From Candidatus Moraniibacteriota bacterium (GTDB taxonomy: Bacteria; Patescibacteriota; Minisyncoccia; Moranbacterales; UBA1568), in contig JAQTRS010000001.1 in assembly GCA_028711705.1 (NCBI GenBank), positions 98,761 to 162,760 on the forward strand: a stretch of DNA of 64,000 nucleotides, written 5' to 3'. The position numbers and the translations under genes were made by a program. The notes under the pieces are model-generated. The model saw only the letters and a program-made list of their open reading frames with translations, was not told the DNA's origin and ran no database searches. This document shows positions 4,447-51,722 of the stretch, in pieces; position 1 is the first letter of the stretch; every line of letters begins with the position of its first letter.

Positions 4447-7400
4447 TTATTTAGCTTGAGGCTCGTCTTGCTGAATTATATCTTGATTCACCGGTTTACC
4501 CAAAGCCTGAGTCTCCATTCCTGAACTGAACTTTGCAAATTCGAAGAACCCGAATGTGAATACTGCCATCATTATGAGCGGTGCGACCAAGGATATATAG
4601 TTTCGCTTACCCGGCCTGAAAATCCTGAGCAAAAGAGAGTTACCCACAACGGAAATAGAACTCATCGCCATCGCCAGTCCTGCCAATTCCGGCTTAAGGA
4701 CAAGCCCGAATACGAAGAAGACGCGGGCGGCGATCGGAATCCCGATCACGTTATAGAACAGGGCGAAGAACATATTCTGACGTATCTTGCCCATAGTCTC
4801 TTTGGAGAGCTGAAACGAGGTCACCACATCATTAAGATCGCTCTTCATGATAACGATATCCCCCGCTTCCATAGCAACATCCGTTCCGGAGCCCATTGCG
4901 ATTCCCACATTGGCCTGAGCCAGCGCGGGTGCATCATTGATACCATCGCCGACCATCGCTACCTTTTTGCCGAGTGCTTGGATTTTTTTGACTTCATTGG
5001 CCTTATCTTCCGGCAATACCTCTGCCAAAATATTGGTGATCCCCACTTGTTTGGCGATCGCCTTGGCGGTGCGTTCATTATCTCCCGTAATCATCCATAC
5101 CTCGATGCCCATTTTTTGCAATTTGGCAACCGCTTCTCGCGACGTTTCTTTGACCGTATCGGCAACGGCGATCGTGCCGACCAAACCCTCCTTGGTTGCC
5201 AAAAGCATCGCTGTCTTCCCCTGTTCTTCAAGGCGAGACATTTTTCGATCGATCTTATTGATTGCCAAGCCAAGCGTCTCCGTCATGAGCTTTCGATTCC
5301 CGAAATAATACGTCGTGCCATTCACTTCACCCTGTACGCCGTGCCCCGGGATGGCATTGAAATTATGCACTTCTTCCAGATCGATCAGCTCCTCTTGAGC
5401 GTAGGTATAGATAGCCTCGGCCAACGGATGCTCCGAAAGTTTTTCCAGACTTGCCGCGATAGCCATGATTTCATCTTCATCCATGGCACAAAATGAAACA
5501 ACATCCGTCACTTCCGGTTTTCCATTGGTCAGTGTTCCGGTCTTATCGAAGATGACCGCGGAAATATTGCTGGCGGCTTCCAGCGCTTCGCCGCCCTTTA
5601 CCAAGATTCCGTATTCGGCACCCTTGCCTGTTCCCACCATAAGCGATGTCGGGGTTGCCAGTCCTAAAGCGCATGGACAGGCGATGACAATCACCGACGT
5701 AAACGCCATAAGCGCAAATGCAAGCGTCGAACCAAGAATGACATACCACACGAAAAACGTGATGATGGCGAGTCCGATAACCGCAGGTACAAACCATGCG
5801 GAAATATTATCCGCAAAATTCTGAATCGGCGCTTTGGAACCTTGGGCATCCTCGATGAGGCGGATGATCTGCGCCAGCGCGGTTTCACTCCCGATTTTCG
5901 TCGCCTCGAATTCAAAGCTGCCTGTCTTGTTCACCGTTCCACCGATCACACTGTCACCGACGTGTTTTTCAATCGGCAGACTTTCTCCGGTAATCATGGA
6001 TTCATCCACAGTGGATGATCCCTTAGTAATCTTTCCATCCACGGGAATCTTTTCTCCCGGGCGAACAAGGATGATATCGCCATGAACGACGCTCTCGATA
6101 GCAATATCGAGAGTCTTTCCGTCGCGTAGCACACGTGCGGTCTTCGCTTGAAGCCCCATGAGCTTCTTGATCGCATCGGACGTCTTGCCTTTCGTTCTGA
6201 TTTCGAGCCACTTACCCAAAATGACAAAAGTGATCAGGTACGCGGCCGTTTCAAAGTAGAGGTCGGGAATCTTCATGCCGCCCACGCCGATCAATGCATC
6301 GTTCGCCAGGACATAGGCAACATAGTTGTACAGGCTGTAGAAAAATGCCGTGCTCGTACCGATAGCTATCAGGCTATCCATATTGAACGTTTTCATCTTG
6401 AGCGCCGACCACATACCCTTGTAAAATCCCGCTCCGATAATGAACTGTATCGGTATGGTCAGGAGGAGAGAAAAAACGCCGATATATGGAGCAAATGCCG
6501 TTTCTCCGGGAAGCCACTTGAAAAAATCCAGTAACATAAAATACAGCATCGGCAAACTCAGGATGAAACTGAACATGAATTTGCTGAAGTACGAAGAAAT
6601 TTCCTTCTCGCGTTTTCGTGTCTCATATTCCGTATCCTTCGCATCCACTTCCTCTCCGCGATATCCCACTTTTGCAATCGCATCGATAAGCGCCTTCGTA
6701 TCCGAAACGCCCCCGTCGAAAAGGATAGAAGCTTTTTCAGCGGAAAAATTAACGTTCGCTTGTTTGACACCGGGAACCTTCTTGAGCTGCCGTTCGATGA
6801 TGTTTGCGCACGAAGAACAATGCATCCCGAAGAGCGATAGGCTCACGCGCTTGTTCGAGGAGTCTGGAGCAGCACTATTCGTAGCATCTGACACCATTTT
6901 GTTCTCAGAAGCGGCCGCTATGCTGTGTTGTGACAGAGTATTGTTCTGATCACCGCCAACAACCGCATCGAACAGATGCGAAAGGTTTGTCGCATTCACG
7001 AGCTGATCGACAAACCCGCGGGCTTGCATATCACCCTGAGGAATATCGAATTCCGCACTCCGATTATTCTTGATCTTACCCTCGAAATACGGTCGTCCGT
7101 CGGGTCCTTCGAGCACTTTTCCTTCTGCCTCGATCTTCGATTCAAGTTTCATGGTCATCGATGTATCATTCGCTACCGTGTTTTCGATAACCGTGATGTC
7201 CGATTTCTCCGGGGATACATCAGACGCTACCGTTTCTTCATCCGTAATCATAGCATCATATCCGGCGCGTTTCACCGCATCGATCACATCCTGTCGAGAA
7301 TTCATATCACTCTCCAGAGTCAGCGCTCCCGTACCGAAATTCGCATCAACAGTAACATCGCTCACACCGGGAAGCTCGCTCAATTCTTCTTTCGTAAGCA

Positions 7401-7721: not shown

Positions 7722-9134
7722 TTATTCCACGATAAATGCTCCGGTATACATTCCCATCGCGCATGAGAACGGAATTTTTCCGGTTTTTTTAGGCGTGAAC
7801 TCGATGATGTTTTCACCCGCCTTCAAGGTTTTTTGAATTTTCAAACTCGAAACCACAATGCTGCTCGCGCAAGAATACGGATCATTGGCGGTAATCACCC
7901 ATTTCACAGGAACGTCCTTTTTGATCGTAAACTTATCGGGCGTATAGCCACGAGAACTTTCGGTCATCGTCACTACCTGCACGCCGTTCGCCAGCTTCAC
8001 ATTCGCATCATTAACCGGAACACTCTTAGGCGTGCTCTTAAGAGCACCCGACGTGCTGCTGACAACACTGGATGACCTATTGCTATTCGCATCCGATCCC
8101 CACTCCCATCCTGTCAGATTGTATCCATTGTTGATATTGAATACGGCTAAAAGAATCACTACGATGCCGGCGAACTTAAAGAATCGCTGCGCGAAAATTC
8201 CTTTTATGATCGAGGTGAGGCCGCCCACGCCGAGCAATCCCGGAGCCGTTCCCAGTGCGAATATTCCCATAATGAGCGCTCCTTGAGTGAAGCTTCCCGT
8301 ACTGATCGCATAGAGCTGCATCGCCTGCGTAAATCCGCATGGCAGGAAAAAGGTGAGCGCGCCCGTAATCATCGAGCCTTGATGCGAGTATTCTTTCTCA
8401 TGATGCTTTTTGATGCCGAAAAACCTGCTGATTCCTTTCGGCAAAGTAATGCCGGCATGTTCCATGCGGGGAAATATTCCCGTGAGTTTCATACCAAGCG
8501 TGAGCATCACCACGCCCACGATGATAGTGAGTAATCCCAAGGTACTTCCGGAAAGTTGTAGCACGGATCCAAGCGAACCCAATATGCCACCCAGAAGCGC
8601 ATACCCTCCGATTCTTCCGAGATTGAAAAACAGATGCGGTCTGAATTTTTGCATGGATGTTGCCTCGGGGTGGAGCTCCGCATGCCTCGCAGAAATACCC
8701 AGGATCAAACCGCCGACAAGCGCCATGCAGGTGGAGAGACCGGCGGTCAATCCCACAAGAAACACGACCGGCAAACCTGACGGGTTGGAGACCGATCCGA
8801 TATTGATGCTCGTAATACCGAGGTTTCTTAGCAGCAGATAGATACCGATAAGAAACAAAAAGGCGACGCCCAAGTCTTTATACTCTTCCGGGTCCTTACT
8901 CAAGAAAGGTTTTTTCGTGCCTGTGCCTACGGTATATCCCGCTTCTCTGATAGCTGTCTCAATGACATGGGTATCCGGCTTTTTTGTTCCGTAGTAAACT
9001 TCGACAGTCCCCTTTTTATACTTCACGACTGTTTTGTGAATACCAGGAATCCGAGTCAGGGCGTCTTCGATTAAGAGTTCGCACGAACGGCAATGCATGC
9101 CATTGATAGATAGGGTGAATTTGTTTTTTTCCAT
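7722..9134 (-). CDS. HMA domain fused to a polytopic permease (DsbD_2/TauE-like) with a C-terminal cupredoxin-like domain; putative metal transporter
   Basis: N-terminal GMHCRSCE HMA motif; about 8 TM helices carrying Cys motifs (GLSTCMAL, FFLPCGFTQA); C-terminal soluble domain ending FSCAMGMYTGAFIV, which resembles the Cupredoxin_1 family. Confidence 0.65.
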   Translation of the reverse strand: MEKNKFTLSINGMHCRSCELLIEDALTRIPGIHKTVVKYKKGTVEVYYGTKKPDTHVIETAIREAGYTVGTGTKKPFLSKDPEEYKDLGVAFLFLIGIYLLLRNLGITSINIGSVSNPSGLPVVFLVGLTAGLSTCMALVGGLILGISARHAELHPEATSMQKFRPHLFFNLGRIGGYALLGGILGSLGSVLQLSGSTLGLLTIIVGVVMLTLGMKLTGIFPRMEHAGITLPKGISRFFGIKKHHEKEYSHQGSMITGALTFFLPCGFTQAMQLYAISTGSFTQGALIMGIFALGTAPGLLGVGGLTSIIKGIFAQRFFKFAGIVVILLAVFNINNGYNLTGWEWGSDANSNRSSSVVSSTSGALKSTPKSVPVNDANVKLANGVQVVTMTESSRGYTPDKFTIKKDVPVKWVITANDPYSCASSIVVSSLKIQKTLKAGENIIEFTPKKTGKIPFSCAMGMYTGAFIVE

Positions 9135-13061: not shown

Positions 13062-14954
13062 TTAGACGTCCATCGCTTTGAGGATGCGGTCGAGCTTGGC
13101 GGTGGCCACGCCCACGACGCTGTCGCCTCCTCCATAGTAGAGGTATATCGTGCCGCCCCGGTTCACGACGCCGCAGGGGAAAACCACTTCATTCACCTGG
13201 CCGTTCTTTTCGTACTCGGTTTCCGGTTCGAAGATGGCATCGGTTGTCCTGGCAAGCAATATGGTCGGGTCTTTCAGCTGCAAGAGCACGGCTCCTACGC
13301 GATAGGTGCTGCTGGCTGACACGCCATGATAAAAGAGGAGCCACCCCTTCTTAGTTTTGATCGGCGGTGCGGCGATACCGACCTTGGCACCGTCCCACAT
13401 GCCGATGCGCGGTCCGATGATCGGCGTGAAGCTTTCCACCTTATCGACGGCGAAATCTAAGGACCTGATCGGATCGAGGCAGATATGGTTATGCGCCCGA
13501 TGGAAAACCAGATAATGCCCGTGTATTTTCTCCGGAAACAGACAGGCGTCCTTATTATCGATGCCGACCGGGGTCACCAGTGCCGGCTGTGTCCACTTCC
13601 AATCCTGCTTGAGGAAATCCTTGGTGGCGATGCTTGAGGCCGCGACCACCGGAGGATTCACGCCGTCATAGGCGGTATAGAACATATGCAGCTTGTCTTC
13701 GAGTTCCGTGATGCGGGGGTCTTCGCAACCGGAATTTCCCGGGTGCGTCTTCCCTTCGAATGCCTGCCGCGGCCCGTATATCGGCTGATCGAACCGTTCA
13801 GTGATATCCTTCCCGTTCTTGGAGGTCGCATAGCCCATCACCGATGTATCATCCATCCCCATCGCGCGGTAGATAATGTGGACCTTGCCCTTCAGATCGA
13901 TGGCGGCCGGATTGAAGACCGCCTTATTTTCCCAGGTGTTCTCTGTAAGCGGCTTGAGAATAGGGTTATCGTGATGACGCACGAATACCGGTTCTTTCTT
14001 GATGCTATACAAGAGGTCTTCCAGATCGACGCTCGCCCGGCAGCCCGTTGTGTCCGTCGCGCCATAGTAGATGAAAAGTTTCTTGCCGGCAACGAAAGCC
14101 CCTGACGGGAAAATGACATTGGGCACCTGCCCGAATTCCTCATAGGTCTCTTCCGGAACCAAAAGCGGCCCGGAGGTGCGCGCGATGATTTTTGAGGGAT
14201 CTTTCAGATCCAAAAGCAGAGCCTCGATGCCGAAGATCTTGTGATCGCTGAAATAATTTTGGATATGCGAATACACGAGCAGCCAGCCGTCCTTGGTCTT
14301 GATAGGTGCGGCCCCGATTTCCACATGATCGCTCTCGCTCCTGCGCAGATCGATACGATGGTCATTAATGTTATCGTGCCACGTCTTCCAGTAGCGCTCC
14401 GACCACATCTCCTCGAGAGTATCGAAGTAAGCCAGCGCCGTGATGACCGGCGGGCTATCTGTGTGCGCACTCAGCATGGCCACATACTTCCCGTTGATCT
14501 TCTCGGGGAAGAGCGTCATCGCTTTGGCATTGAACGGCGTGACCAGGTGGCGCTCCTCTATCCTTTTGAAGTTCTTGGTCAGGGCCACGGCGATCTTGAT
14601 GCCATCGGCGCCGAACGGAAATGTCGAGAGCGCGGTATAGAAAATATAGTAGGTATCGTTGATCTTCGTGACCCTGGGATCTTCGCAGCCGAATTTCTCC
14701 CACTCGAATACGGGCGCGATAAGCTGCTTGCGTTTTTCGAAGTGATGACCATCCGCGCTTTCCGTATAGCCGATGGACGAGATGCGCAGTTCCTGCTTGT
14801 GCACATACTTCACATCCGACACCGCCCGATACACGGAATGCACCTTGTCCTTATCCTGTATAGGGCACCAGTTGAAGGCGCCGAAGGATTCCCAAGCATG
14901 ATCGGATATCGGTTTCAGCAACGGATTGTGAGTGGATCTTCGTATGACGAGCAT
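13062..14954 (-). CDS. Glycoside hydrolase family 130 protein with two tandem GH130 beta-propeller modules (beta-mannoside phosphorylase/hydrolase-like)
   Basis: The motif N-P-[IL]-[IL]-K-P...W-E...F-N-P...YRA occurs twice (HNPLLKPISDHAWESFGAFNWC...YRAVSD and HDNPILKPLTENTWENKAVFNPAA...YRAMG), along with CEDPRVT/CEDPRIT motifs. Confidence 0.8.
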   Translation of the reverse strand: MLVIRRSTHNPLLKPISDHAWESFGAFNWCPIQDKDKVHSVYRAVSDVKYVHKQELRISSIGYTESADGHHFEKRKQLIAPVFEWEKFGCEDPRVTKINDTYYIFYTALSTFPFGADGIKIAVALTKNFKRIEERHLVTPFNAKAMTLFPEKINGKYVAMLSAHTDSPPVITALAYFDTLEEMWSERYWKTWHDNINDHRIDLRRSESDHVEIGAAPIKTKDGWLLVYSHIQNYFSDHKIFGIEALLLDLKDPSKIIARTSGPLLVPEETYEEFGQVPNVIFPSGAFVAGKKLFIYYGATDTTGCRASVDLEDLLYSIKKEPVFVRHHDNPILKPLTENTWENKAVFNPAAIDLKGKVHIIYRAMGMDDTSVMGYATSKNGKDITERFDQPIYGPRQAFEGKTHPGNSGCEDPRITELEDKLHMFYTAYDGVNPPVVAASSIATKDFLKQDWKWTQPALVTPVGIDNKDACLFPEKIHGHYLVFHRAHNHICLDPIRSLDFAVDKVESFTPIIGPRIGMWDGAKVGIAAPPIKTKKGWLLFYHGVSASSTYRVGAVLLQLKDPTILLARTTDAIFEPETEYEKNGQVNEVVFPCGVVNRGGTIYLYYGGGDSVVGVATAKLDRILKAMDV

Positions 14955-37085: not shown

Positions 37086-38558
37086 ATGCTCAGGATTTAC
37101 AATACCCTCACCAAACAAAAGGAGATTTTCGAACCGCTCTACCCGGGAAAGGTCGGTATGTATACCTGCGGGCCGACGGTCTATGGGAAAATCCATATCG
37201 GCAATCTGCGCGCCTATCTCCTCGGGGATATGATACGCCGCTACTTCGAATACGCCGGCTATGAAGTGCGGGCCATCAAAAACATTACCGATGTCGGACA
37301 CCTCACCGACGACGATGTCGCCCAAGGCGATAGCGGCGATGACAAGATGATCAAGCAGGCCCTCAAAGAGCACAAAACGCCTCAAGAAATCGCACAGTTC
37401 TACGAGGAGTATTTCCACGTGACGGAAAAACAGATAAATATCCTCCCGGCTCACTATTTCCCTCGCGCCACCGCCCATATCCCGCAAATGATCAAACTCA
37501 TCGAGGAACTGATAACCAAAGGCCATGCCTATGAAAAAAACGGCAATGTCTTCCTCGATGTCACCACCTTCCCCGAATATGGCAGGCTCTCGGGCAACAC
37601 GCTCGACAAGCTCAAAGTCGGCGCCCGCCTCGAAGAACATCCCGACAAGAAAAACCCGTGGGACTTCGCGCTCTGGCTCAAGGCCCCAAAGAATCACCTG
37701 ATGAAATGGGAATCCCCTTGGTCCTTGGGGTATCCGGGATGGCATATCGAGTGCAGCGCGATGAGCATGGAATACCTTGGCGACACCTTCGACATCCACA
37801 CGGGCGGCGAAGACAATATCTTTCCGCACCATGAAGCCGAAATCGTGCAGTCCGAAGGCGTGACCGAAAAACCCTTCGCCCGCTACTGGCTGCATGTCCG
37901 CCACCTGCTTGCCGACGGCGTCAAGATGTCCAAATCCAAAGGCAATCTCTACACCCTCGAAGACATTCTCGACAAAGGCTATTCCGCCATGGACGTACGT
38001 TTCCTCCTCCTTTCGAGCCACTACCGCTCCCAGATGAATTTCACCTGGGAAGCCATGGATCAAGCCCGCTCCAATCGGGAGACGCTGCAGAATTTCCATG
38101 ACCGGCTTACCGAGTGTCATCCTGAGCCTGTCGAAGGATCTTTCCGATCAGAGCAAGATGCCTCGACTACGCTCGGAATGACACAGGATAAAATCTCTCT
38201 CGATACCGAGAAATATCGAGCCGATTTCGATGCCGCACTCGAAGAAGATTTCAACACGCCGCAGGCCCTGACCGTATTGTTCGACATGACCAAAAACGGC
38301 AATAAACTTATCGACGAGGACAGATTGGACAACCCAACCGATGTCCTGAAATTTCTGGAAACAAGCGCTGCCGTTCTCGGCCTGCAATGGACCAAAAAAG
38401 AAGCCATCCCGGAGCATATCCAAAAGCTCGCCGCCGACCGGGAAGAGGCCCGCAAACAAAGGAACTTCGCGCGTTCCGATGAGCTGCGAGAAGAGATAGA
38501 AAAAGCCGGGTTCAGTATCGAGGACACGGCCCAGGGTGCGAAACTCAAACGGATATAG
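37086..38558 (+). CDS. cysS: Cysteine--tRNA ligase (carries an in-frame palindromic-repeat insertion)
   Basis: HIGH motif (HIGNLRAY), KMSKS (VKMSKSKGN), Zn ligands and a DALR-like anticodon-binding domain ([10 protein letters not shown]). The 23-aa segment [23 protein letters not shown] is encoded by the repeat at 38115-38184. Confidence 0.95.
38115..38184 (+). repeat. Palindromic repeat family, copy A (in-frame inside cysS)
   Basis: tgtcatcctgagcctgtcgaaggatc...cgctcggaatgaca; the arms are imperfect reverse complements (GTCATYCYGAGC / GCTCGGAATGAC). Confidence 0.7.
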
Positions 38559-38887: not shown

Positions 38888-39059
38888 GTATCCCCCTATT
38901 TGATGTGATATCTCAGTTATTTATTTCTGCTGTATTGTGCCTGAAAATGCGGTGTATTCCGCACCTATTCATTTGTTAATGAACAAACCATAGTAGCATA
39001 TATTTTTCATTCCGTCAAGACTACCCGAAAGGCCTGGGCAAGTGTATACTAGAAGAACT

Positions 39060-40442
39060 ATGGCGAAGAGCTCCAACAATAATTTGGTGACGCAGTTGCG
39101 CATCCCGCCCAACAATCTCGAAGCTGAGCAGTCCGTGCTCGGCTCTTTGATGCTGGATAAGGACGCGGTCATCAAGATCGCCGACCTTCTCAAAGTCGGA
39201 GACTTCTACAAAGACGCCAACAACGACGTCTACGAGATCATGCTCGAACTCTACGAGAACCGCGAACCGCTCGATGTGCTCAGCATCTCCAACCGGCTCG
39301 AAGAAAAAGGCCGCCTTGATCGGATCGGCGGCGCAAGTTACCTTGCTTCCCTGGTCAACTCCGTCCCCTCCGCATCCAATGTCGTCCACTACGCCAAAGT
39401 GGTGCAGAAAAAAGCCATGCTCAGGCGACTCATCGGTGCCGCGAGCGATATTCTCGAAATGGGGTATAACGAATCCGAAGATGTGCAGAAAATCCTCGAC
39501 GAAGCGGAACAACGGCTTTTCAGGGTTTCGCAAAAATACATCAAGCAGGATTTCATCCCGATCAAATCCATACTCGAAAACGCCTTCGAGCGTATCGATG
39601 AACTGCACCGCAGCGACAACACCTTCCGCGGCGTGCCCAGCAATTACCCGGACCTCGACAATATGCTCTCGGGATTCCAGAAATCCGACCTCATCATCCT
39701 CGGAGCAAGACCATCTATCGGTAAAACGACTTTCGCGCTCGACCTGGCCAGGCAGATCAGCGTCTATTCCAAAGTTCCGGTGGGTATCTTCTCATTGGAA
39801 ATGGGTTCCGACCAGCTTGTGGATCGTATGATCGCCGCGCAATCCGGCGTGGATTTGTGGCGCCTGCGCACCGGAAAACTCCAAAGCGATGACTTCTCCA
39901 AGATTGGTGAGGCCATCGGCATCCTAAGCGAAGCGCCTATCTTCATCGACGACAGCGGCTCACTTAATATCATGGAAATGCGCACCATGGCACGCCGTCT
40001 CCAGTCCGAACACAATCTCGGTATGATCATCATCGACTACCTCCAGCTGATGGAAGGCCGCAGCCGGGGCGGCGACAACCGCGTGCAGGAAATTTCCGAA
40101 ATCTCCCGCGGACTCAAGCAGCTGGCACGCGAACTCAATATCCCGATCATGGCGCTCTCGCAGCTGTCCCGCGGTATCGAAGCCCGTCAGGATCAGATGC
40201 CCAAGCTCTCCGACCTCCGCGAATCCGGATCCATCGAACAGGACGCCGACGTCGTGCTCTTCCTCTCCCGCGAGGACCGCTACAAGCCCGACACCCCGAA
40301 CAAAAACATCGTCGACGTCGTCATCGCCAAACACCGTAACGGCCCGATCGGTAAGATCCAACTCTACTTCCAAGAGAACTCCACGACTTTCAAGTCTCTG
40401 GAGCGCCTCCACGATGCCAGCCAAGCTCCGCAGGAACATTAG
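39060..40442 (+). CDS. dnaB: Replicative DNA helicase DnaB
   Basis: N-terminal domain (PPNNLEAEQSVLGSLMLD), Walker A GARPSIGKTTFAL, Walker B IIIDYLQLM and arginine finger region. The start is taken at the ATG (MAKSS) rather than the upstream GTG. Confidence 0.95.
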   Translation: MAKSSNNNLVTQLRIPPNNLEAEQSVLGSLMLDKDAVIKIADLLKVGDFYKDANNDVYEIMLELYENREPLDVLSISNRLEEKGRLDRIGGASYLASLVNSVPSASNVVHYAKVVQKKAMLRRLIGAASDILEMGYNESEDVQKILDEAEQRLFRVSQKYIKQDFIPIKSILENAFERIDELHRSDNTFRGVPSNYPDLDNMLSGFQKSDLIILGARPSIGKTTFALDLARQISVYSKVPVGIFSLEMGSDQLVDRMIAAQSGVDLWRLRTGKLQSDDFSKIGEAIGILSEAPIFIDDSGSLNIMEMRTMARRLQSEHNLGMIIIDYLQLMEGRSRGGDNRVQEISEISRGLKQLARELNIPIMALSQLSRGIEARQDQMPKLSDLRESGSIEQDADVVLFLSREDRYKPDTPNKNIVDVVIAKHRNGPIGKIQLYFQENSTTFKSLERLHDASQAPQEH

Positions 40443-40461
40443 AATCATTTTCGGGTAGTTT

Positions 40462-40497
40462 AAAAGGCTAGAGTGATTTTCATCTCTAGCCTTTTAA
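40462..40497. terminator. Bidirectional terminator after dnaB
   Basis: aaaaggctagag-tgattttcat-ctctagcctttt. Confidence 0.7.
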
Positions 40498-40506
40498 TGA
40501 CGAATG

Positions 40507-40803
40507 TTATCCGCCATCGCAATACTTGCCGAACTTAGCTACCAAATCTTTTGGCGGAATTGTATCGGTAATATCATATTTATCATCAATAGTAATTTTC
40601 AAAGATCCATCTCTTGCTTTAGCAATAGCGCCATGCAAGTTGACTGTTCCGCAAACATAGTTTGTTGAATGACGCGCCTCATATTCCATTTGTCCCGTAC
40701 GCCACACTCCTAAAGGAATTGCAAGTATTGTTGCTAGCATTAATATCCTCGCGACCCATTTCCCTACTCCACCAAATAACAATTTGTCTATTGTGTTACT
40801 CAT
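40507..40803 (-). CDS. Hypothetical membrane-anchored small protein
   Basis: 98 aa with one TM (VARILMLATILAIPLGVW); AT-rich. Confidence 0.4.
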   Translation of the reverse strand: MSNTIDKLLFGGVGKWVARILMLATILAIPLGVWRTGQMEYEARHSTNYVCGTVNLHGAIAKARDGSLKITIDDKYDITDTIPPKDLVAKFGKYCDGG

Positions 40804-41002
40804 GATGTTCCCCTTATGGATGAATCTTATCCGACATCAAGCGGACAGACTCGGTTAAAAAATATTTCCTACGACGCCTCTAACCGACTTTTGTCAGCGA
40901 TATCCGCTATCTCCAGATTGTTAAAGGATGCTTTATCATAGCAAAGATACCGTATTTTGTCAAGTACAGCGAAAGCAGGTATACTGAAATGACTTCTTTA
41001 TG

Positions 41003-41105
41003 TGTCATTTCGAGCTTGCCGAGAAATCTTCTACGCTTGTAAACAGATCCTTGCGCCACCGCTAAAGCTTTATGCGACACGCGGTCGGCTACGCTCGGGA
41101 TGACA
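41003..41105 (+). repeat. Palindromic repeat family, copy D (intergenic, in the 5' leader region of recR; long variant)
   Basis: tgtcatttcgagcttgccgagaaatc...gctacgctcgggatgaca, 103 nt, with the same terminal inverted repeats as copies A-C. It lies downstream of a TTGTCA-N17-TATACT promoter. Confidence 0.65.
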
Positions 41106-41191
41106 ATCGTGAGTCTTGTGCTTTATAAATTGTCCGACGTTTACTATTGTTTGTTTTTTTGTTGACTATTAATTGTTGTCTGTTATCCGAT

Positions 41192-41785
41192 ATGTATCCC
41201 AAACCATTTGAAAAATTGATAAGCCACTTCACTTCCCTGCCGTCCGTCGGACCAAAGATGGCGGAGCGTTTGGTGCTCTATCTCTTCAAGCAGGACCAAG
41301 AGAAACTCGAAGACTTCGCGCAGTGCCTCGAAGATATCCATAAGCTCCAAATCTGCAAACAGTGCTTCCATATCGCCGAAGGGACGCTGTGCAGCATCTG
41401 CATGGATCCGCGCCGCGACATGGCGGTTTTGTGCGTCGTCGAAGAGCCGCTCGACATCATCGCCATCGAACGCACCCGAAGTTTCCAAGGACGCTACCAT
41501 GTTTTGGGCGGCGTTATGGAACCGGCCAAAAAAAACTCGGTGGCGGCTCCGCTCCATATCCCTGAACTTTTGCAGCGCATCGAGGACGAGAATATCAAAG
41601 AGGTCATCCTGGCCACCAACCCCACCACCGAAGGCGACCTGACCGCCCTCTACCTCAAGAAAAAACTCGAACCCTTCCATATCAAAGTTACCCGCATCGC
41701 CAGGGGCCTCGCTACCGGCGGTGACATCGAATACGCCGACGAGATTACCCTCACCTCCGCCATCACCAATCGCAAAGATTTATAA
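41192..41785 (+). CDS. recR: Recombination protein RecR
   Basis: HhH motif (LPSVGPKMAERL), C4 zinc finger (CKQC...CSIC) and Toprim domain (AVLCVVEEPLDIIAIERT...ILATNPTTEGD). The start is set at the internal Met (MYPKPFEKL). Confidence 0.9.
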   Translation: MYPKPFEKLISHFTSLPSVGPKMAERLVLYLFKQDQEKLEDFAQCLEDIHKLQICKQCFHIAEGTLCSICMDPRRDMAVLCVVEEPLDIIAIERTRSFQGRYHVLGGVMEPAKKNSVAAPLHIPELLQRIEDENIKEVILATNPTTEGDLTALYLKKKLEPFHIKVTRIARGLATGGDIEYADEITLTSAITNRKDL

Positions 41786-47726: not shown

Positions 47727-47901
47727 GTTAATAGAGAGGTGACATGTTTGATTGAGAGTCCGGCACCTAGGCGCGATAAGAGCCAGGTACGCAAAGGCAA
47801 GACCTGTATGGATGTTATCTTCCCTCTATCTCGAAAGAGATTCCCATCGCTAACGCCGATCATGTCGGACTCGAAAGCGAACATGTCACCTCTCTATTAA
47901 C
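47727..47901. repeat. 175-nt element bounded by perfect 22-bp inverted repeats (MITE-like or highly structured RNA)
   Basis: gttaatagagaggtgacatgtt (47727-47748) is the exact reverse complement of aacatgtcacctctctattaac (47880-47901). Nested internal pairings include gagtccg/cggactc and an atctc-gaaa-gagat GNRA hairpin. It occupies the gap between two + strand genes. Confidence 0.55.
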
Positions 47902-48288: not shown

Positions 48289-49527
48289 ATGTCAATCAAA
48301 AAAATCCTGCTCGCAACGCGGCCGCTCACTCCTCCTTGGGACGAAGCTTCCAAAAATTTCGCGTATTTCCTCGCTAAGAGCATCAAAGATCCGGAATTGC
48401 AGATGAATATCCTTACCACGTCGACTCCGCTCGATGGCTTGGGAGACAATGTCGTATCACACCCTATATTCCCCCTCTACGATGCCTCGCGCGCCGGGCA
48501 TTCTTTCTCACAAAAAGTTATCCTTTCAAAATACCTCTTTACTGAAAGCCACCGCTACGATATCGTGCACTACCTTTTCACACCGACCGCGCTCAATTCA
48601 GCCCTCATCAGAAATTTCACCTATCGACGTCCGAAAACCGTACAGACCATCGCTACATTACGCGAGGATTTGTACGGGCCGAAAGACTGGAAGAAAATGC
48701 TATTCGCCGATCGTATCGTAACCTATTCGGATTATTCCAAAAGAAAGCTCGAGGCGAACGGATTTACAGGAATCGAACGTATTTACCCGGGAATAGACCT
48801 CGACCTCTATGCTCCGAAACCGAAAAACGAAGAGGCTCTCAAGCACTTCGATCTTACACGTGAAGATGTTGTCGTGATGTATCCGGGAGAATATGTCCGC
48901 CTCGGCGCAACCGATATGCTCGTAGAGATGCTCATTACATATTTAAAATCACAATCTTCTGATTGTCATCCCGAGCTTGTCGAGGGATCTTCCCAGATAG
49001 AAACAGATTCCTCCACTACGGTCGGAATGACACGTGCAAAAACCATCACATTCATCTTCGGTTGCCGGATTAAAAACGAAGCGGATCAAAAGAAAAAAGA
49101 CGAAGTTGTCGCCAAACTCACCCAGGCAGGCATCATCGACTGCGTCAGATTCACCGACACCTGGAAAGATATGCCGACGCTCTACAATCTTTCTGATATC
49201 GTCATCTTTCCGGTCGAGAATATGCGTGGAAAATTCGATATCCCACTCGCCATCATCGAAGCCTATGCCTGCGGAAAGCCGGTCATTCTCTCTGATCTGG
49301 AGATTTTCCAAGAGTTCTCCTCGCCGGAATTTTCCGTCACCATTCCTTTGGCACGCCAAAGCCTAAGCGAAGGCGGCCGCACCCTCTGGCAAACCATCCT
49401 TGACCTGCAATCCGATGAATCAAAAAGAAAAAGGCTCGGCACAAATGCACGAACTTTTACTGAGCAATTCTTCGATTTAAAGAATACCGCTCAAAGCTAC
49501 GAAAGGTTATATGCTTCACTGCAGTAG
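48289..49527 (+). CDS. Family 4 glycosyltransferase (carries an in-frame palindromic-repeat insertion)
   Basis: GT-B fold with a C-terminal EAYACGKPVILSDLEIFQEF E-x7-E-like motif. The segment CHPELVEGSSQIETDSSTTVGMT is encoded by the repeat at 48964-49032. The start is chosen at MSIKK to avoid overlap with the upstream gene. Confidence 0.8.
   Translation: MSIKKILLATRPLTPPWDEASKNFAYFLAKSIKDPELQMNILTTSTPLDGLGDNVVSHPIFPLYDASRAGHSFSQKVILSKYLFTESHRYDIVHYLFTPTALNSALIRNFTYRRPKTVQTIATLREDLYGPKDWKKMLFADRIVTYSDYSKRKLEANGFTGIERIYPGIDLDLYAPKPKNEEALKHFDLTREDVVVMYPGEYVRLGATDMLVEMLITYLKSQSSDCHPELVEGSSQIETDSSTTVGMTRAKTITFIFGCRIKNEADQKKKDEVVAKLTQAGIIDCVRFTDTWKDMPTLYNLSDIVIFPVENMRGKFDIPLAIIEAYACGKPVILSDLEIFQEFSSPEFSVTIPLARQSLSEGGRTLWQTILDLQSDESKRKRLGTNARTFTEQFFDLKNTAQSYERLYASLQ
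48964..49032 (+). repeat. Palindromic repeat family, copy B (in-frame inside the GT4 gene)
   Basis: tgtcatcccgagcttgtcgagggatcttcccagatagaaacagattcctccactacggtcggaatgaca, 69 nt (23 codons). Confidence 0.7.
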
Positions 49528-50135: not shown

Positions 50136-51722
50136 ATGTCAACCATAAAAATTGAGAAATTAGCCGAACATAAACAGCAGTTCCAGACGGAAAAAATGAA
50201 GGTTCCGGTGGTTTTACATATCAACGATGCGCTGCTTCCCGAAGAGTCCACGCTTTTGCAGCTGCAGTCCGTCGCGTCCAATGACTGTTGCTTTCATCAC
50301 ATCGCCGGCATGGCCGATGTTCACTCCAAACCCGGACGCAAAAACGCCACCGGCACAACCGTAGCTTCCGAAAAGTTCATCCTGCCTCAGGTCAACGATT
50401 CCGACCCGGCCTGCGGTATGCGTTTGGTCCGCACCAACCTGACCGAAGACAATATCACACCGGAGGAACTCGACAAACTTTTCAAGGAACTCGTCTACAA
50501 GGTACCCACCAAAAAATATGTCGGTACCTATATCCCCTTCCGCGTCGTCGTCGACATCTGCCGCAAGGGTATCGGTCCGCTTATCGATCACCTCGGCATC
50601 AAGACCAAATTCGAAAAGGAGAACGCCTTGGGAGGCGAGAACTTTTTTACCACCACTCGTCATCCCGAGCTTGTCAATGGATCTCCTCAAACAGAAATAG
50701 ATTCCTCCGCTACGGTCGGAATGACAAATGGAAGCGCCCCCTCCCGCCAAGACATCTTTAACATTATTCCCAAACTCTTCCTATTTTTCGCGCAATTCCG
50801 TCTCGGTATCTTAGGCGCAGCCGGCAACCACTTCCTTGACCTCATGAAGGTCACGGACATTGAGGACGAGGAAACCGCGCAGAAACTGGGCATCAAAAAA
50901 GGCCAGTACCTCTTCATGGTGCACTGCGGATCAGGCATACTCGGGCAGTACACGATGTATATGTATACCGCCAAGAAACGCGAACACCTCTCGACCGCTA
51001 TCCTCATGAATATCGGGCGCTTCTTCTGGAGCACGCCGTACAGAAAAACCATCGACCTGATCGCCAAGAAAATACGCGAATCGGACTTCGGAAAGAAAGA
51101 GCCGCTTATCACCTTCGATGGCGAGGGCGACGACGGGAAAATGTATATGGCGGCCCGCAATGCCTGCTCCAACTTCGCCCATGCCAATCGCGCCGTTATC
51201 ACGCACAATGTCGGCGAAACGATCCAGAGAGTGCTCGGCCGCGACGCAGGGCTTGAGCTTCTCTATGACATGCCGCATATCCTCGTGAGTAAAGAGGAGC
51301 ACTTCGGCAAAAATATCTGGGTGCACCGCAACGGGACCTCACGCGCCTATGGCCCATCCCGCATGAAAGAGCATCCGCTCTTCAGCCAGACCGGCGAACC
51401 CGCCTTCATCCCGTCCTCCATGAGCACCGAAGCCTATATCTGCGTCGGTACCGACCACAACGAATCCAGCTTCTTCTCCTGCAACCACGGCGCCGGAAAA
51501 GCCGCTAAAAAAACGGAAGATATCGTCCCGGAAAGCCAAGAGGAGCTCCGCAAAAAACTTAAGTCCAAGGGAGTCCAGCTCTATAACGGTCAGTCCAAGA
51601 AAGTCATCGAGCAGGACTCCTCGCACTACAAGCGCATCGAGGATGTCATCGCCGGAGCCAAGGCGAACAATATCGTAAAGCCCATCGCCAAGATGCAGCC
51701 GATTTCGATCATCATGTACTAA
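50136..51722 (+). CDS. rtcB: RNA-splicing ligase RtcB (carries an in-frame palindromic-repeat insertion)
   Basis: RtcB motifs ACGMRLV (metal-binding Cys), HCGSGILGQY and CNHGAGK (catalytic His region). The 23-aa segment RHPELVNGSPQTEIDSSATVGMT comes from the repeat at 50658-50726. Confidence 0.9.
   Translation: MSTIKIEKLAEHKQQFQTEKMKVPVVLHINDALLPEESTLLQLQSVASNDCCFHHIAGMADVHSKPGRKNATGTTVASEKFILPQVNDSDPACGMRLVRTNLTEDNITPEELDKLFKELVYKVPTKKYVGTYIPFRVVVDICRKGIGPLIDHLGIKTKFEKENALGGENFFTTTRHPELVNGSPQTEIDSSATVGMTNGSAPSRQDIFNIIPKLFLFFAQFRLGILGAAGNHFLDLMKVTDIEDEETAQKLGIKKGQYLFMVHCGSGILGQYTMYMYTAKKREHLSTAILMNIGRFFWSTPYRKTIDLIAKKIRESDFGKKEPLITFDGEGDDGKMYMAARNACSNFAHANRAVITHNVGETIQRVLGRDAGLELLYDMPHILVSKEEHFGKNIWVHRNGTSRAYGPSRMKEHPLFSQTGEPAFIPSSMSTEAYICVGTDHNESSFFSCNHGAGKAAKKTEDIVPESQEELRKKLKSKGVQLYNGQSKKVIEQDSSHYKRIEDVIAGAKANNIVKPIAKMQPISIIMY
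50658..50726 (+). repeat. Palindromic repeat family, copy C (in-frame inside rtcB)
   Basis: cgtcatcccgagcttgtcaatggatctcctcaaacagaaatagattcctccgctacggtcggaatgaca, 69 nt. Confidence 0.7.

Follow-up and report, generated by a model that had tools for sequence, protein, structure and literature searches.

A tagged palindromic repeat dimer with a private internal insertion in the recR leader of a Moranbacteria genome

The 103-nt palindrome upstream of recR in this Candidatus Moranbacteria genome is a canonical member of a dispersed repeat family, enlarged by a single 33-nt insertion and by 1 nt in its spacer. It is a derived singleton rather than an ancestral or autonomous form, and relatives conserve the element poorly or do without it; it is probably an old, decaying passenger repeat, and any effect on recR is incidental. 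The family fits the head-to-head dimers of CGTC/TGTC-tagged REPs, judged by the portion of their published description used here, and would extend this known kind of repeat to Moranbacteria. The analysis covered the window, a 64-kb stretch of a MAG from the candidate phyla radiation (CPR/Patescibacteria), together with 172 related loci (L numbers below), 1.7 Mb in all. The nearest recR loci, drawn from public genomes and metagenomes, belong to Moranbacteria. The RecR of the window matches a Candidatus Moranbacteria protein at NCBI without a difference, and an exact-sequence look-up of RecR gave only an identical Logan contig of 7.4 kb, which contributed no new sequence.

The element lies in a divergent intergenic region of 388 nt that separates recR from a small gene on the minus strand (Table 1). 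Translation of recR starts at ATG 41192, and the residues MYPKPFEKL begin all homologs. No Shine-Dalgarno motif was found in the leader segment between the element and this start codon (41106-41191).

Table 1. Coordinates of the repeat copies, the parts of the 103-nt element and the surrounding features in the window
Feature	Coordinates	Strand	Description
Canonical 69-nt copy	38115-38183	+	in frame and sense in cysS
dnaB	39042-40442		followed by a hairpin, with the 98-aa minus-strand gene next downstream
Divergent 98-aa gene	40507-40803	-	occupies variable slot between dnaB and recR
Promoter-like site of the divergent gene	40935-40963	-	TTGACA-17-TATGAT with TG extension; 11/12 consensus matches
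recR promoter-like site	40957-40985	+	TTGTCA (40957-40962), 17-nt spacer, TATACT (40980-40985); promoter scan, 10/12 consensus matches
103-nt palindromic element	41003-41105	+	head-to-head dimer of two (T/C)GTC-tagged hairpin units; recR-sense orientation
Left unit	41003-41030	+	tag TGTC (41003-41006), stem ATTTCGAG (41007-41014), loop CTTGC (41015-41019), stem CGAGAAAT (41020-41027), tail CTT (41028-41030)
Inter-unit spacer	41031-41044	+	CTACGCTTGTAAAC; 14 nt
Right unit, inverted and interrupted	41045-41105	+	AG ATCCT (insertion) TCG GCTACG CTCGGGAT GACA
Private 33-nt insertion	41052-41084	+	TGCGCCACCGCTAAAGCTTTATGCGACACGCGG; within one stem strand of the right unit
Remaining 5' leader	41106-41191	+	T-rich; 63% identity to the alignable L038 leader
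recR	41192-41785	+	197 aa; RecR Pfam domains
Canonical 69-nt copy	48964-49032	+	in frame and sense in GT4 glycosyltransferase gene
Canonical 69-nt copy	50658-50726	+	in frame and sense in rtcB-like gene

Two divergent promoter-like sites, whose -35 hexamers overlap on opposite strands, precede the element. An earlier note had placed the palindrome between a TTGTCA-N17-TATACT promoter and recR, and this position is confirmed: the promoter-like site was recovered by the scan, and its -35 and -10 are unchanged across five lineages (the window, L038, L162, L168/L169 and L171), in all of which TGTCAAG...GGTATACT is invariant upstream of recR. The same string occurs at no further place in the window or in the other related loci searched. 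Because it stands only 25 nt from the recR ATG in L162, the conserved motif is read as the recR promoter. From its consensus and conservation we infer a transcription start near 40992; with such a start the element, which begins 18 nt past TATACT, would occupy approximately +11 to +113 of a 200-nt recR leader. The minus-strand promoter block is likewise kept in L038, L162, L168 and L171. The bidirectional promoter as a whole lies at 40935-40985 in the window, at 9715-9771 in L038 and at about 4540-4594, 2540-2594 and 1195-1252 in L162, L168 and L171, respectively, and the small divergent genes found beside it are non-homologous (98 aa in the window, 166 aa in L038, 97 in L162, 103 in L168 and 143 aa in L171). 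The dnaB-recR interval thus resembles a slot whose gene content varies while its promoter cassette is conserved.

Membership of the element in the same repeat family as the three in-frame 69-nt copies of the window was established with a covariance model for which four 69-nt copies were the sole input. The model matches the 103-nt copy end to end (model positions 1-69; 41.7 bits, E 1e-10) on the plus strand, in agreement with the earlier description of this copy as a longer member of the family to which the intragenic copies belong. The minus strand scores 22.7 bits; because the plus strand outscores it, the orientation of the element is taken to be that of recR. An nhmmer profile of the short copies matched the long copy in two pieces, covering model positions 1-55 and 49-69. 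The ends of the element, TGTCATTTCGAGC and GCTCGGGATGACA, pair at 13 of 13 positions on the plus strand (11 Watson-Crick pairs and two G.U). They had been described as the same termini as those of the intragenic copies, which holds for their family character but not for their identity: the left terminus agrees at 11 of 13 positions (TTT against CCC or CCT) and the right at 11-12 of 13. In the window, terminus matches with 0-1 mismatch number eight and pair into exactly four elements, namely the long copy and the three canonical copies of Table 1. With up to two mismatches there are 18 matches in the window against 6.7 expected, a number that none of 100 shuffles reached.

Each unit of the family is composed of a (T/C)GTC tag, a stem of 8 positions, a loop of 5-6 nt, the complementary strand and a short tail. 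The tag reads TGTC or CGTC on all eight units of the four window elements, and likewise in L162, L038, L082 and L003. Stems have 8 positions in every unit and start AT...AT. In the window's clade six of these positions are Watson-Crick, while positions 6-7 form a conserved tandem G.A/A.G (CGAG opposite CGAG), seen in 8/8 units of the window and in the copies at L162 13506-13574 and L038 8916-8984; the more distant copies at L082 1403-1487 and L003 8192-8275 have perfect 8-bp stems. Loops measure 5 nt in left units (CTTGT or CTTGC) and 6 nt in right units (CGTAGC or CGTAGT), and the tail, CTN in the window's clade, is CCC in L082. Each of the four window elements is a head-to-head dimer with the tags outside and a spacer of 13-14 nt. 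Elsewhere in the window no lone units were found at 0-1 mismatch, and no properly oriented family ends lie 0.5-5 kb apart.

The long copy follows this plan as a heterodimer, its left unit being of the TTTC type and its right unit of the CCC type. The left unit shares 27 of 28 positions with L038 8916-8984 and as many with the leader copy of L168. In the covariance-model alignment the two consensus ends fall on 41003-41022 and 41085-41105, with 62 nt between them. Once 41052-41084 is removed, the resulting 70-nt element can be aligned over its full length with each of the canonical copies and adopts their two-stem hairpin fold (-31.2 kcal/mol). The 33-nt segment forms, with adjacent bases, a small hairpin of its own, and blastn-short found no second copy of it in the 1.7 Mb of the window and the 172 related loci.

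The comparison of long and short forms proposed in the earlier note was carried out over the 64 kb available from the source genome and some 150 kb from close relatives (209 kb of close clade); it yielded no second 103-nt copy, although other long copies may exist outside this DNA. The covariance model recovered about 12 dimers in this clade, four of them in the 64 kb of the window; six measure 68-69 nt, five 79-85 nt and a single one 103 nt. Thirteen more, of 55-90 nt, were found in 0.95 Mb of other CPR loci, which makes this a dispersed, multi-copy family. Searching by regex for paired termini brings in further copies from other Moranbacteria and CPR relatives, 94-110 nt long and in one case 150 nt. 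These carry unrelated GC-rich sub-hairpins in either unit, and internal insertion is therefore a common source of length variation in the family. A long subfamily sharing the 33-nt centre of the window copy was not found in the 1.7 Mb searched.

The 69-nt copies occupy sites shared with relatives and are therefore regarded as old; the sharing of sites between species suggests that the family has not moved recently. Occupancy can nevertheless differ at a given site. At the cysS site of 38115-38183, L163 carries a different variant (1429-1507; 79 nt, encoding CHCERNETI...ATLPRKDN), L162, represented by the 3' part of cysS, retains only the remnant SVGMT, and the cysS of L165 has nothing, which suggests that the insertion site is old or has been used repeatedly. 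The rtcB homolog at L163 13012-14810 was called as two ORFs flanking a 79-nt repeat copy (13526-13604), whose length is not a multiple of three, and a glycosyltransferase gene in L162 holds a cluster of full and partial copies (13506-13720). For the three in-frame copies of the window, the antisense strand folds 4-7 kcal/mol better than the mRNA strand, as C.A mismatches in the sense become G.U pairs in the antisense; selection against stable structure in the coding RNA might account for this. The window also contains an unrelated intergenic palindrome of 175 nt (47727-47901; 39-nt arms, 87% complementary, -83.5 kcal/mol, z -9.0), which lies between a 681-aa and a 116-aa ORF and has no Rfam match. 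Because the gene pairs matching its flanks are only 3-10 nt apart in L162 and L163, it looks like a lineage-specific insertion.

Relatives whose RecR is 88-93% identical show two gene orders between dnaB and recR. In L082, L083, L163/164, L165-167 and L170, as well as in the more distant L173, L084 and L002, recR directly follows dnaB, with neither promoter block nor element. A small minus-strand gene and the bidirectional promoter intervene in the window, L038, L162, L168/L169 and L171, and within this second group the state of the leader varies. L168/L169 carry the element at the same place, 16-17 nt past the -10; it is 68 nt long, its left 28 nt are those already compared with the window, and its right end has decayed to GCTCAAAACAACA. 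In L038 the right unit is intact (AGATCTCTCGACTACGCTCGAGATGACA) and the left arm has decayed; because the right unit is intact, this copy lacks the window's insertion. It has instead a different expansion of about 58 nt, which forms a long hairpin of its own (z -4.4). A common origin of the two expansions was considered and rejected, as the right unit of L038 is uninterrupted and only the short motifs CCAC and GGTCGG are shared. L162 has no element, though it has the same promoter. The leader of L171 is ambiguous: all that it has in common with the window is a 14/16 match to the spacer, whose homology is itself ambiguous because alignments disagree.

Across these orthologs the element is the least conserved segment of the leader, with an identity of 42-55%; the corresponding values are 50-63% for the downstream leader, 65-84% for the promoter block and 78-84% for the recR coding sequence. 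The 33 nt of the window copy we take to be a gain rather than a deletion in L168, on grounds of parsimony and canonical length, because a deletion in L168 would have needed to restore exactly the canonical length. A RecR tree was not usable for polarising insertion against deletion, being too shallow and in disagreement with gene order. Nor could L162 serve as a clean empty site for a target duplication, as it also lacks the whole T-rich leader. At the site next to dnaB in L038, a perfectly self-complementary 69-nt copy (8916-8984; 27-nt arms, -44.8 kcal/mol) lies 38 nt past the dnaB stop codon, and the gene-plus-promoter cassette of this locus is accordingly bracketed by two repeat copies.

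As RNA, the palindrome is predicted to form a hairpin, as the earlier note had anticipated. The fold of the UTR that it had called for gives -40.5 kcal/mol for 40995-41115 (z -2.8; two of 200 shuffles fold as well), with a 13-bp closing stem whose predicted pair probability is about 1 in the UTR context. Local unit hairpins were rejected as the dominant RNA fold, as they reach -2.5 kcal/mol against a probability of about 1 for the long-range stem. The two strands of the element fold equally (-37.3 kcal/mol for the plus and -37.8 kcal/mol for the minus strand). When the whole leader is folded, its minimum-energy structure has the element as an independent domain that ends 86 nt before the recR ATG and does not pair with the recR start region. 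No terminator-like site was found in 40400-41400; past the stem there is no U tract and the sequence runs on as ATCGTGAG. Rfam returned only two tRNAs for the whole window at the gathering threshold, and nothing relevant for 40800-41250 at E values up to 10. A 21-codon ORF starts in the leader at ATG 41100, inside the right end of the element; it was discarded as an upstream ORF or leader peptide, as its ATG is lost in L168 and it is in frame with recR in L038.

CGTC-tagged REPs are the known repeats that the family resembles most closely in plan. In the portion of the survey used here (Di Nocera, De Gregorio and Rocco, 2013; PMC3733652), this group includes Rickettsia RPE-4/RPE-6 and Neisseria dRS3, and its units have an unpaired terminal tag, CGTC and often TGTC or CCTC, a stem of 8-9 bp opening with the pairs A-T and T-A, a loop of 4-5 nt (other lengths in some families) and a short tail with the consensus CCA. 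According to the same portion, they are found chiefly in head-to-head dimers, which may form a single large stem-loop, lie mostly downstream of genes and have no dedicated transposase, while their intragenic inserts are mostly dimers or grouped repeats encoding 20-30 residues (PMC3733652). Measured against this partial account, the Moranbacteria family agrees in its (T/C)GTC tags, its inverted units, a dimer foldable as one stem-loop, units that differ in loop and stem (heterodimer), and intragenic dimers that encode approximately 23 amino acids in frame. It differs from that account in the tandem G.A/A.G at stem positions 6-7, the 6-nt right loops, the CTN or CCC tail and a spacer of only 13-14 nt, and the copy studied here differs further in lying in the 5' leader of a divergent intergenic region with one unit interrupted by 33 nt. 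CPR lineages, to which the present host belongs, are not among the hosts named in that portion of the survey (PMC3733652). On these features of sequence and predicted structure, the family fits CGTC/TGTC-tagged REP dimers.

Other classes of short repeat share fewer of these traits. The family resembles MITEs in being short, multi-copy and non-coding here, in its terminal inverted repeats (13/13 pairing, including two G.U) and in its presence or absence among relatives. Unlike MITEs, it shows no target-site duplication, as no flanking direct repeat was found at the four window copies or at L038 8916-8984, and the 64-kb window gave no sign of a cognate insertion sequence sharing its ends. Rickettsia palindromic elements, of which the RPE-1 type measures about 100-150 bp and belongs to alpha-proteobacteria, are similar in forming a palindromic family with copies both in frame in conserved housekeeping genes and in intergenic DNA; the recR leader copy is an intergenic, non-coding one. 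Correia insertions carry TA target duplications. The Correia element of mtrCDE offers a parallel in position, being a palindromic non-coding repeat just past a promoter whose inverted ends give a hairpin in the 5' UTR, which is here a prediction. There is, however, no sequence similarity between the two, and an IHF site, RNase III cleavage and internal promoters are features demonstrated for the Correia (CREE) elements of Neisseria gonorrhoeae (about 100-200 bp; PMC10969869). Literature searches with the repeat DNA and the encoded peptide strings returned only unrelated primer matches or nothing, and a search on MITEs in the Candidate Phyla Radiation found nothing relevant.

An RNA-level effect on recR mRNA is possible. 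One reading holds that the hairpin has been co-opted for control of recR, either as a 5'-end stabiliser, in which a stable structure beginning some 5-11 nt into the transcript would shield the mRNA from 5'-end-dependent decay, or as an RNase III site, in which a stacked stem of about 19 bp would be cleaved as in Neisseria leader Correia elements. The closing stem itself speaks for this, with its predicted probability near 1 and a possible extension by six weak pairs to 40997; the two non-Watson-Crick pairs are U.G only on the recR-sense strand, and the window copy keeps its 13/13 stem while orthologs decayed, which could hint at lineage-specific selection. There is precedent as well: RNase III cuts at the inverted repeats of the Correia element just past the mtrCDE promoter (PMC10969869), and REP dimers may be RNA hairpins sensitive or resistant to endoribonucleases, according to the portion of the REP survey used here (PMC3733652). 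Co-option is nevertheless unlikely, as the structure is not kept in orthologs (the L168 copy folds at only -7.4 kcal/mol, and L038 has lost the left arm and forms a different hairpin), L162, under the same promoter, and the relatives in which recR follows dnaB lack the element, no other part of the leader is conserved so poorly, and the recR-sense strand folds no better than its complement. More doubtful still is a version specific to the window's lineage, in which the hairpin of the REP dimer, spanning recR mRNA positions from about +11 to +113, would have become a 5'-end stabiliser or RNase III entry site, its stability or protein recognition altered by a third helix that the 33-nt insertion would contribute. 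If this were true, a selfish palindrome would have become a working part of an mRNA leader, in a CPR bacterium whose regulatory repertoire is minimal.

The earlier note had also suggested that the element attenuates recR at the level of transcription or translation. A strong hairpin between promoter and start codon invites that view, but such a role is very improbable: the hairpin lacks the U tract and the surrounding kilobase the terminator-like sites that transcriptional attenuation would draw on, the domain closes 86 nt short of the ATG and does not pair with the start region, neither its structure nor the 21-codon ORF is conserved in L168 and L038, and no cis-regulatory family of Rfam matches. 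We give equally little credence to an outward promoter at the right end of the element driving recR. Read from the sequence, ATGACA (41100-41105) and TATAAA (41124-41129), 18 nt apart, each match the consensus at five of six positions, and promoters borne by MITEs have precedent in some Correia subtypes (PMC10969869); this pair was, however, unreported by the promoter scan, its -10 is without the final T, neither L038 nor L168 conserves the motif, and the conserved upstream promoter, which adjoins recR in L162, already explains recR transcription. The suggestion that the long form is an ancestral or autonomous master copy, the source of the 69-nt copies, can draw on its being the longest copy in the window and intergenic, yet it is hardly credible. 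Its 103 nt have no ORF and no coding capacity, the excess over canonical length is a single 33-nt insertion that breaks one stem strand of an otherwise canonical unit, the orthologous copy of L168 has canonical length (68 nt) and that of L038 is expanded elsewhere, the centre is unique in 1.7 Mb, and the 69-nt copies are themselves old, at sites shared with relatives.

The element is thus most probably an old passenger in decay, and its history may be pictured as follows. A non-coding CGTC/TGTC-tagged REP-type dimer would have inserted near the beginning of the recR transcript, 18 nt past the -10, in an ancestor common to at least L168 and L038, which presumably already had the small divergent gene and the bidirectional promoter between dnaB and recR. 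The orthologous copies would then have drifted, through independent decay and independent internal insertions: the window copy would have gained 33 nt in its right unit while keeping complementary ends, the L168 copy would have kept its canonical length and lost its right end, and in the L038 copy the left end would have disappeared and a separate expansion arisen. If the conserved promoter transcribes it together with recR, as its position suggests, the window copy would yield a multibranch hairpin with the 13-bp closing stem near the 5' end of the mRNA. An effect of this hairpin on the stability or processing of recR mRNA, if any, would be incidental rather than that of a selected attenuator.

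The practical value of these results is for annotation: it would be a mistake to label the long form a master element or a riboregulator of recR, and the repeats of this genome may be catalogued among the CGTC-tagged REP dimers, a kind that they extend to Moranbacteria in the candidate phyla radiation. The orthologous leaders, with a copy of canonical length in L168, one enlarged by 33 nt in the window, another expansion in L038 and no element in L162, offer a small natural history of palindrome decay in a 5' leader, and the same series provides ready-made constructs for studies of REP-type hairpins and mRNA fate in CPR bacteria.
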